Shown: positions 9,037 through 10,293, counted from the first letter of the stretch. The stretch: 27,999 bases of DNA from an uncultured Bacteroidales bacterium (GCA_964433245.1 CAYSRH010000001.1:1-27999), one strand, 5' to 3'. Translations and numbers: made by a program. The notes: a model not told the origin generated them from the letters alone.

Positions 9037-10293
9037 TTATTTTCTGTTAATTTCATTCAATGTATCAATCATTGCCACAACATTTTCTATCGGCGTATTT
9101 GCCTGTATATTATGCACCGCATTAAAAACAAAGCCACCTTTTCGACCCAAAATTTCACACTGTGTTTTTACTTGTTTTTTTACTTCATCGGGCGTGCCGT
9201 AAGGGAGGACTTTCTGCGTATCGACACCACCACCCCAAAAAGCAATGCGATCTCCATACTTATCTTTTAGCAGCACCGGATCCATTCCTGTTGCATTGAT
9301 TTGTACCGGGTTCATGATATCAAATCCGGATGCAATAAATTGTTCCATAAAAGACTCAATTGCGCCACAGCAGTGCTTAAACGTTTTCCAGTTTGTGTTT
9401 TTGTGAATCCAATCATTAATCTTTTTATAATAAGGCATATAAAGTTCATCATATGTTTCAGGAGAACAGAAAGTAGAATCCTGTGTTCCAAAATCCGTAC
9501 CGCAAATAAAAACAGCATCAACGGTATCTCCTGCAATTGGTTTGAGCCTGGCAAGATTCTTTAATGCGATGTCCGTCTGCTTCTCAAAAATTTCATGTAC
9601 ATAGTCCATGCGCATAACGGTGGACATATACCACTCAGCAACATCTCGGATTCCTTTTGGGTCGCGAAGGTTCATGGCAGGCACCAAAGCAATATCACCC
9701 AAGCCTGTGCCGCCAAAGTTAGCCACCACAGCTTTGTCCGAATCTTTCACGCTGGCAATTTGCTGTTTCCAATACAAGAGGTCATCATCCGAAAGAATTC
9801 CGAATTCTTCCAGGTTGTCTTCGACTTTTAGTTGTTCTTCATCGATAGGTTTTTGGCGAACAATTGCATCAAAGAAAAAGCTGTCTTTGGGCATTTTTGC
9901 AGAGGGTTCAGCAGAGGTATCTCCTGCAGGAAAAACATAGGTAGCACCTTCATTATCGTAGCTCACATGAAAACTTTCAGGCACCAGCACCGTTTGTCCC
10001 CAATGGGTCTTGAATTCCTTCCATCCTTGTTGGGGCATGCCAAACATATTGCAAAGAGGACTTAAACCTATGGCATCAATACCAATTATCTCCATCAGAT
10101 CAGGCTCAATTTCGCCTAACATCTGATAAGGTTCAATTAATTTAATTGGTTTTTGTGGCAAGGCAAAATGCGCCCTGAGCTTTTCAACGATTCTAACATG
10201 AATACCTGAAACCGGCGTCGCACCAAAATCAATAGGAACAGAAGCGGTTTCTGTATGGTTTAATGCAGCCTTAATTCTTTCTTTTCCTGTCAT
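9037..10293 (-). CDS. URO-D/MtaA-superfamily protein (probable corrinoid-dependent methyltransferase, not HemE)
   Basis: MTGKERIKAALNH...VPIDFG start, DFGTQ, YMPYYK, KHCCG, FWGGGVDTQ and GGFVFNAVHNIQ; lacks the HemE RQAGR motif. Confidence 0.85.
   Translation of the reverse strand: MTGKERIKAALNHTETASVPIDFGATPVSGIHVRIVEKLRAHFALPQKPIKLIEPYQMLGEIEPDLMEIIGIDAIGLSPLCNMFGMPQQGWKEFKTHWGQTVLVPESFHVSYDNEGATYVFPAGDTSAEPSAKMPKDSFFFDAIVRQKPIDEEQLKVEDNLEEFGILSDDDLLYWKQQIASVKDSDKAVVANFGGTGLGDIALVPAMNLRDPKGIRDVAEWYMSTVMRMDYVHEIFEKQTDIALKNLARLKPIAGDTVDAVFICGTDFGTQDSTFCSPETYDELYMPYYKKINDWIHKNTNWKTFKHCCGAIESFMEQFIASGFDIMNPVQINATGMDPVLLKDKYGDRIAFWGGGVDTQKVLPYGTPDEVKKQVKTQCEILGRKGGFVFNAVHNIQANTPIENVVAMIDTLNEINRK

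Follow-up and report, generated by a model that had tools for sequence, protein, structure and literature searches.

What reaction would be expected of a protein that carries the fold of uroporphyrinogen decarboxylase (UROD), and whose gene lies beside that of a corrinoid (vitamin B12) carrier protein? The question is raised by a stretch of 27,999 nucleotides from an uncultured Bacteroidales bacterium (GCA_964433245.1 CAYSRH010000001.1:1-27999; the whole stretch is referred to below as the window), in which an open reading frame (ORF) at 9037-10293, on the minus strand, encodes a protein of 418 residues, P0001. An initial annotation, which correctly gave this ORF and its length, had taken P0001 as a donor-side methyltransferase (MT1), that is, as an enzyme that binds an O-methyl sugar and loads its methyl group onto a corrinoid. 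This is also the reading that is best supported by the present analysis: the corrinoid operon to which the gene belongs, the sugar genes that surround its orthologs, the co-occurrence of orthologs and corrinoid proteins in genomes, and the LacI-type effector domain of the adjacent regulator all suggest that P0001 could be the donor-side MT1 of a modular corrinoid system, demethylating an imported methylated sugar. The case is circumstantial, and we give this assignment an even chance of being right.

The P0001 protein and its operon

The URO-D fold proposed for P0001 is borne out by Pfam, AlphaFold2, Foldseek and VIA-align, which agree with each other. The Pfam family PF01208 (URO-D) matches residues 210-414 only, with an E-value of 5.5e-17 and a score of 62.2 bits that lies above the curated cut-off of 23.9. 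Among NCBIfam models, those for MtaA/CmuA rank over the one for hemE (58 vs 21 bits), all three scores being below their respective cut-offs: 58.2 bits for TIGR01463 (cut-off 235.4), 53.5 bits for NF004889 (cut-off 244), and 21.3 bits for TIGR01464 (hemE; equivalog cut-off 302.95). With 57 relatives as input, AlphaFold2 models P0001 as a URO-D/MtaA barrel, at a predicted local distance difference test score (pLDDT) of 96.6; Foldseek places the Methanosarcina mazei MtaA structure 4ay7 first (E 5e-13), followed by URODs and then by MetE, and VIA-align recognizes a URO-D-type (beta/alpha)8 barrel, with Z scores of 22.6-23.7 to 1j93, 4exq, 4ay7 and 2eja over approximately 305 of the 418 residues. 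Sequence identity to MtaA is 16-17%, and a PDB search with the P0001 sequence alone returned noise-level matches only. The structure of the MT1 CdmB, 9rui, is absent from the Foldseek and VIA match lists, whose libraries are possibly older than this entry; the family profile of P0001 matches it with an E-value of 0.016, in a stretch confined to the last 58 residues. No signal peptide is visible by eye. ESM Atlas matches are confined to "URO-D domain" clusters, and in a representative library the family comprises 8412 clusters at E<=0.001 and 694 at E<=1e-30, whose members bear no source name more specific than "URO-D family protein" or "methyltransferase".

P0001 shares its MTGK.RI start with a second URO-D-type enzyme of the same operon, enzyme B, as had been pointed out in the initial annotation, which also described an extra region of about 90 residues, at 85-175, relative to that enzyme. 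Extra material is indeed present, but it amounts to approximately 80 residues, and its borders are approximate. Since the hhalign match pairs residues 185-414 of P0001 with residues 129-331 of enzyme B, the additional residues lie mostly before position 185 (at least 56 of them, including a beta-rich excursion that spans approximately 86-135), and a 10-residue loop at 205-214 makes up a further part.

Two motifs delineate a putative metal site. The first, H307-C308-C309-G310 (9364-9375, minus strand), was reproduced at the coordinates first reported, and corresponds in profile alignments to the HxC zinc motif of MtaA, the family profile "tflHsCGs" pairing with "tvLHICGn". The second, NAVHNIQ (residues 391-397; 9103-9123, minus strand), occupies the distal-ligand position according to hhalign and profile alignments: His394 (codon at nucleotides 9112-9114, minus strand) stands opposite Cys311 of enzyme B, and this Cys311 is itself paired with the distal Cys of MtaA ("APGCG"). 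The chained alignments from P0001 through enzyme B to MtaA thus agree with the earlier claim of a distal His where MtaA has Cys. Among 57 full-length relatives, with 28-67% identity to P0001, His307, Asn328, Pro329 and Asp267 are each invariant. Asp267 (9493-9495, minus strand), found in the alignment of relatives and in the model within a DxGxQ motif that follows a barrel strand, could likewise serve as a ligand or contact the substrate. Cys309 and His394 are each present in 51 of the 57, the other six having Asp in place of Cys309. Of the His-Cys-Cys stretch originally noted, His307 and Cys309 are therefore conserved, but Cys308 is not (19 of 57, with Ser in 32). In the closer orthologs that are described below, H.CG is found in 74 of 75 sequences, HSCG in 71 and HN[IVL]Q in 74; a paralog in another genome, encoded next to genes for a homocysteine methyltransferase and a corrinoid protein, reads H-T-D-G...HNLQ. 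The conserved residues, many of which are Asp, Asn, Gln or Trp, come after predicted barrel strands, whose ends form the usual active-site face of such barrels.

These data make a His-Cys-His metal site a reasonable inference from the sequence. The chemical rationale that had been attached to it, namely that exchange of Cys for His would yield a more Lewis-acidic zinc center suited to O-ligands, as in O-demethylase MT1s, is only partly right, because the known O-demethylase MT1s of the UroD superfamily employ carboxylates or no zinc, and hence do not display a Cys-to-His swap. Nor is His394 a derived swap, since true URODs have His at the same position, where the zinc-free MT1 CdmB has Phe.

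The operon within which P0001 is encoded runs entirely on the minus strand, in the order GntR-type helix-turn-helix (HTH) regulator, P0001, corrinoid protein, MtaA-like/thioredoxin fusion (enzyme B), CobW GTPase, MetH-activation-like protein, hemerythrin/RIC-like protein and LuxR-type gene; from the regulator through the activation-like gene, intergenic gaps are at most 37 bp or the genes overlap. The regulator (10305-11321), 11 bp upstream of P0001, combines its HTH with a LacI/RbsR-type effector domain in an AraR-like layout; its AlphaFold2 model (pLDDT 85.6) matches LacI, RbsR and PurR in Foldseek, with TMt values of 0.68-0.75. The corrinoid carrier protein (8334-8999), separated from P0001 by a 37-bp gap, carries the signature D112-x-H114-x-x-G117 (DLHDIG).

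Enzyme B (6950-8314) consists of an MtaA-like methyltransferase, recognized by profile matches (E 1.2e-25 to 4ay7), and a thioredoxin-like CxxC domain; its likely role, as judged from its domains, is that of a methyl-corrinoid:thiol methyltransferase (MT2). It has Phe where MtaA has a zinc-binding His ("FFVCGH" vs "LHICGN"), with both Cys231 and Cys311 kept. Its C-terminal domain, with C375-A-P-C378, shows a weak match to a HUIPC-motif (seleno)protein family, and a longer form of 539 residues is found in relatives beside a homocysteine methyltransferase and CobW.

Profile matches also identify the next two products, a CobW/COG0523 GTPase (6030-6950), of a family of metal chaperones, and a stand-alone protein similar to the MetH activation domain (5368-6051), whose probable role would be the reductive reactivation of Co(II). 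A hemerythrin/RIC-like di-iron protein (4543-5283) follows 84 bp downstream, and its membership in the system is uncertain. Profile scans detected neither a homocysteine-binding nor a pterin-binding module in the operon, and the sole match to PF02574 in the genome is MetH, on another contig. In the absence of such modules, the two URO-D-type enzymes are the sole partners available to the corrinoid protein and, enzyme B being MtaA-like, P0001 is left as the donor side. A split MetH, which would be complete without a URO-D protein, was rejected for the window on the grounds of these same missing modules. A profile scan also found no RACE gene in the operon; in the window, as in 14 of 80 related loci, the corrinoid protein is accompanied by a MetH-activation-like protein and not by an ATP-dependent RACE-type activase. 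An Rfam scan of the window identified no family, cobalamin riboswitches included, and promoter and terminator scans remained at the level of shuffled sequence.

Sugar genes and corrinoid proteins around the orthologs

Additional evidence as to the substrate comes from 80 ortholog loci, with 56-65% identity to P0001, whose neighboring genes were clustered and annotated by cluster representatives. The hosts are mostly Bacteroidales, Prolixibacteraceae and Draconibacterium, with few Kiritimatiellae, Fibrobacterota and Spirochaetaceae. A recognized sugar gene lies at most three genes away in 45 of 75 ortholog loci, and the share of sugar genes, 18-33% at offsets from -2 to +3, falls to 0-4% beyond five genes; most are on the same strand as the ortholog, with median gaps of 11-103 bp. 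The recurrent sugar-related neighbors are a beta-helix protein similar to glycoside hydrolase (GH) family 120 (23 loci), a sugar porter of the major facilitator superfamily (MFS; 21), a GH29 fucosidase (19), hexokinase and a GFO/IDH/MocA oxidoreductase (13 each), and a GH2 protein and a 3-keto-disaccharide hydrolase (9 each). The neighborhoods also contain components of the methyl-transfer system: the MetH-activation-like protein (14 loci), the corrinoid protein (12), homocysteine S-methyltransferase (10) and a 333-residue MtaA-like protein (10). A GntR/LacI-type regulator as in the window occurs in 11 loci, standing directly upstream of the ortholog in seven and at most four genes upstream in 10 of these 11.

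A recurrent operon order is sugar MFS, GH120-like protein, ortholog, GH29, hexokinase, GH2. By eye, signal peptides are present on the glycosidases, and absent from the ortholog and from hexokinase, a pattern which fits release of the sugar in the periplasm, its import, and demethylation and phosphorylation in the cytoplasm. In two loci (L095 and L084), sugar and methyl-transfer genes share one strand, where the regulator, the ortholog, and genes for the GH120-like protein, the GFO oxidoreductase, the corrinoid protein, the MtaA-like protein and homocysteine methyltransferase are found together; the activation-like gene is also on that strand in L095, and in L084 the oxidoreductase gene is upstream of the ortholog. 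In a sample of GTDB genomes, the genes for one ortholog, a corrinoid protein, an activation-like protein and an MtaA-like protein stand together between SusC/SusD pairs, and another ortholog follows two GH29 genes. Proteins of 750-843 residues with no Pfam match also recur directly beside orthologs (L044, 7321-9852; L023, 11339-13585; L050, 3179-5437), and could represent glycosidases, as yet undescribed, that act on the same substrate.

The link to the corrinoid is best seen at the level of genomes. In a sample of 401 genomes from the phylum, 43 encode a homologue of the corrinoid protein (11%) and six encode an ortholog of P0001, all six being among the 43; within one family (f26), the same three of eight genomes carry both. 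In each of five further genomes with "orphan" orthologs, a single close homologue of the corrinoid protein is encoded elsewhere (45-71% identity), so that a corrinoid protein is present in all 11 ortholog-bearing genomes tested.

The enzymes that accompany the corrinoid protein vary among relatives. Its gene is found with an MtaA-thioredoxin fusion, homocysteine S-methyltransferase and CobW; with homocysteine S-methyltransferase and the activation-like protein, behind a GntR/PBP regulator; with a 455-residue MtaA-thioredoxin fusion and CobW, as in the window; or with a pterin-binding methyltransferase and methylenetetrahydrofolate reductase (MTHFR), with a GH10 gene alongside. The combination of a varying MT2 and a constant P0001 ortholog is the pattern that would be expected of a substrate-specific MT1. 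The last arrangement was observed in a Rikenellaceae metagenome-assembled genome (MAG; L122, genome G405, contig C3, approximately 4794-9839), whose sole corrinoid homologue is encoded with the pterin-binding methyltransferase, an MTHFR with DUF5981, the activation-like protein and a GH10 xylanase, in a layout that resembles that of classical demethylases, set beside a xylan enzyme.

The genome of origin is a Bacteroidota MAG, 88% complete, and the DNA of the window is found in microbial-mat metagenomes, with no RNA run listed among the sequencing runs that carry it. Three more divergent URO-D paralogs, with 20-22% identity to P0001, are encoded in this genome (L003, 1150-2265, contig C33; L006, 5-979, contig C164; L002, 813-1748, contig C209); a LacI regulator, a GH2 glycosidase and an amidohydrolase are among their neighbors, two of the three retain the H-x-C-G motif, and no corrinoid gene is visible on their short contigs. 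Elsewhere in the window, a FISUMP (Fib_succ_major) protein and then two ORFs of 112 and 324 residues without family match lie just upstream of the methyl-transfer operon (11529-14041, minus strand). They are joined by tandem AraC-type regulators of 385 residues each, with N-terminal regions of 290 residues that have no Pfam match (14554-15711 and 15796-16956, plus strand), and by a 1670-residue protein with SprB repeats, PKD and a CHU_C type IX secretion signal (22912-27924, minus strand), which identifies the organism as a member of the Bacteroidota.

A proposed pathway and its rivals

In the pathway that we propose, a methylated monosaccharide, freed by periplasmic exo-glycosidases and imported, would bind at the polar mouth of the P0001 barrel, where a divalent metal, probably zinc, held by His307, Cys309 and His394, would polarize the ether oxygen. 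The Co(I) corrinoid of the carrier protein would then attack the methyl carbon, generating methyl-Co(III) and a free sugar, which could enter glycolytic metabolism, hexokinase being co-operonic in relatives. The methyl group would be discharged to a thiol by the MtaA-like/thioredoxin fusion in the window, and in relatives by homocysteine S-methyltransferase or by the pterin-binding methyltransferase; corrinoid that had been oxidized to Co(II) would be repaired by the MetH-activation-like protein.

Several observations weigh against this assignment. Profile scans revealed no carbohydrate-active enzyme (CAZyme) or sugar transporter in the window itself, and a corrinoid gene lies within 10 kb in only 12 of the 75 ortholog loci (16%). 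Naive co-occurrence statistics overstate the link between ortholog and corrinoid protein, because the genomes counted are related and not independent. True URODs carry the equivalent of His394, which leaves the metal site putative; a related MT1, CdmB, needs no zinc, and a thioether might be accommodated just as well by a site that contains Cys.

P0001 could thus be a corrinoid MT1 whose donor is not a sugar, but, for example, methanol, an amine, a methoxylated aromatic compound, or a thiol or thioether in methylated form. Such a donor would be in keeping with the retention of Cys in the putative site (S-methyltransferases of the superfamily use His-Cys-Cys), with a window devoid of CAZymes and with a partner, enzyme B, that is MtaA-like. 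It is made unlikely by the orthologs, which at 56-65% identity are located within operons for sugar transporters, glycosidases and hexokinase, mostly on the same strand, as well as by the LacI-type effector domain of the regulator and by a family profile that barely matches the aromatic/haloalkane MT1 CdmB.

It is also conceivable that the B12 module is adjacent to P0001 by coincidence, and that the latter is a corrinoid-independent, sugar-modifying enzyme of URO-D fold, such as a decarboxylase. The 63 of 75 loci with no corrinoid gene within 10 kb, the match of His394 with the active-site His of UROD, and the presence of paralogs beside LacI or GH2 genes on short contigs that show no corrinoid gene would all be compatible with this idea. 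We nevertheless regard it as improbable, in light of the corrinoid protein found in 11 of 11 ortholog-bearing genomes vs 11% of the phylum sample, the joint presence of sugar and corrinoid genes on one strand in L084 and L095, the gap of only 37 bp in the window, and the HxC motif, which is characteristic of the methyltransferase branch and absent from UROD ("LFTKGG").

The direction of methyl transfer, which cannot be read from sequence, raises another alternative, in which the corrinoid is loaded by enzyme B, or by some other enzyme, and unloaded to an acceptor by P0001, or in which P0001 works both ways; a methyltransferase that acts in both directions on a shared corrinoid core has been described (PMC12478193), and the cores of relatives hold the MtaA-thioredoxin fusion and homocysteine methyltransferase together, so that the former need not be the MT2. 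The catabolic sugar context offers no obvious methyl acceptor, and the type of MT2 differs among genomes (homocysteine methyltransferase, pterin-binding or MtaA-thioredoxin) around a constant P0001 ortholog, which renders such a reversal or sharing of roles very unlikely. Finally, a true uroporphyrinogen decarboxylase, HemE, to which the Pfam family name and the fold might point, was rejected as virtually inconceivable: P0001 scores 21 bits with TIGR01464 against a cut-off of 303, PF01208 matches its C-terminal half only, there is no haem context, and no match in the genome (88% complete) reaches the hemE cut-off.

If P0001 is a sugar-specific MT1, as we prefer, its family might perform the O2-independent, cobalamin-dependent cleavage of aliphatic sugar methyl ethers in a hub-and-spoke arrangement, with a single core of corrinoid protein, MT2 and repair protein per genome serving MT1 genes dispersed in glycan operons, and with methyl groups passing to the methionine, folate or thiol pools of anaerobic glycan degraders. 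This generalization is in our estimation slightly more likely to be wrong than right. The novelty, as proposed, would lie in the MT1 family and in the class of substrates of a three-component corrinoid methyl-transfer system, and the literature that was searched contains no report of corrinoid- or B12-dependent sugar demethylation or of URO-D proteins in glycan loci, including for Bacteroides thetaiotaomicron. Methylated sugars, such as 2-O-methyl-fucose, 2-O-methyl-xylose, 3-O-methyl-hexoses, 6-O-methyl-galactose and 4-O-methyl-glucuronate, are widespread in plant, algal and microbial glycans, and to our knowledge the sole sugar demethylase that has been described requires O2. A B12-dependent route, if it exists, would explain how methylated sugars are used anaerobically, and thousands of "URO-D family" proteins would gain a functional assignment. 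It would also link the demand for vitamin B12 to the breakdown of glycans in sediments, microbial mats and guts, and would add aliphatic sugar ethers to the aryl ethers as substrates of corrinoid methyl transfer. The analysis names a small set of proteins on which these ideas can be directly tested.

Comparison with known systems

P0001 resembles HemE in its fold (Z of approximately 23) and in a C-terminal "FNxxHxI" motif that includes His394, and differs from it in the presence of the HxC motif and in the lack of a haem context. With the methylcobamide:coenzyme M (CoM) methyltransferases MtaA, MtbA and MtsA it shares the HxCG motif, the MtaA structure 4ay7 being its best Foldseek match. Unlike in MtaA, the distal Cys is replaced by His394, so that the H-x-C...C zinc motif is incomplete; the overall identity is 16-17%, and approximately 80 residues are additional. 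The proposed direction also differs, since MtaA, MtbA and MtsA unload methyl-corrinoid onto a thiol, whereas P0001 would load the corrinoid.

UroD-superfamily methyltransferase homologues are also encoded with a corrinoid protein, and with no folate methyltransferase, in the type 1 mlp clusters (Kountz and Balskus, bioRxiv 10.1101/2023.07.31.551370). The corresponding proteins are approximately 30% identical to CoM methyltransferases and, with few exceptions, display a His-Cys-Cys site; they are associated with a RACE-type activator and with sulfur and selenium metabolism, mainly in Firmicutes; Bacteroidota, thioredoxin fusions and CobW are not mentioned in that report (bioRxiv 10.1101/2023.07.31.551370). 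The identification of P0001 as a type 1 MGC Mlp protein was rejected in view of its His-Cys-His site, its 16-17% identity to MtaA and the lack of a RACE gene. In MtgBCD and split MetH systems, a single corrinoid carrier serves both a substrate demethylase and methionine synthesis (PMC12478193; split MetH, PMC5764234). The corrinoid cores of relatives that include a homocysteine methyltransferase are similar in this respect, but the donor enzyme of MtgBCD is a glycine betaine methyltransferase of the MttB family, and the operon of the window contains no homocysteine or pterin module.

A parallel in architecture is offered by OdmB, VdmB, MtvB, MtoB and CdmB, the MT1s of corrinoid O-demethylase and dehalogenase systems. 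Like P0001, they are UroD-superfamily barrels of approximately 420-430 residues with extensions in the N-terminal part (CdmB, structure 9rui, has about 430 residues and N-terminal extensions), and their genes are adjacent to that of a small corrinoid protein, as is the case for P0001 and the DxHxxG protein 37 bp downstream; for them, as for P0001, the role that is proposed is methyl transfer from a substrate to Co(I). Kinship with this clade is marginal, as judged from the comparison with 9rui only (E 0.016 over the C-terminal 58 residues). Its members act on aromatic methyl ethers or haloalkanes, whereas the context of P0001 is that of sugars; they employ carboxylate ligands or no zinc, in contrast to the His-x-Cys...His of P0001, and they work with a pterin-binding MT2 and an ATP-dependent RACE-type activator, instead of which the P0001 operon encodes the MtaA-like/thioredoxin fusion and the MetH-activation-like protein.

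In chemical terms, a better precedent than the O-demethylase MT1s is MtaB, the methanol:corrinoid methyltransferase, in which zinc assists the attack of Co(I) on an aliphatic C-O bond, the chemistry that a sugar methyl ether would need. MtaB belongs to an unrelated barrel family with another set of ligands, and was not matched, by sequence or by fold, in the searches with P0001. As regards the substrate, the parallel is a cytochrome P450 of marine and gut Bacteroidota, which demethylates 6-O-methyl-galactose in the course of glycan catabolism, needing O2 and releasing formaldehyde. Both this enzyme and, as proposed, P0001 would remove a methyl ether from a sugar; the P450 is unrelated and O2-dependent, and yields formaldehyde where P0001 would carry out methyl transfer.

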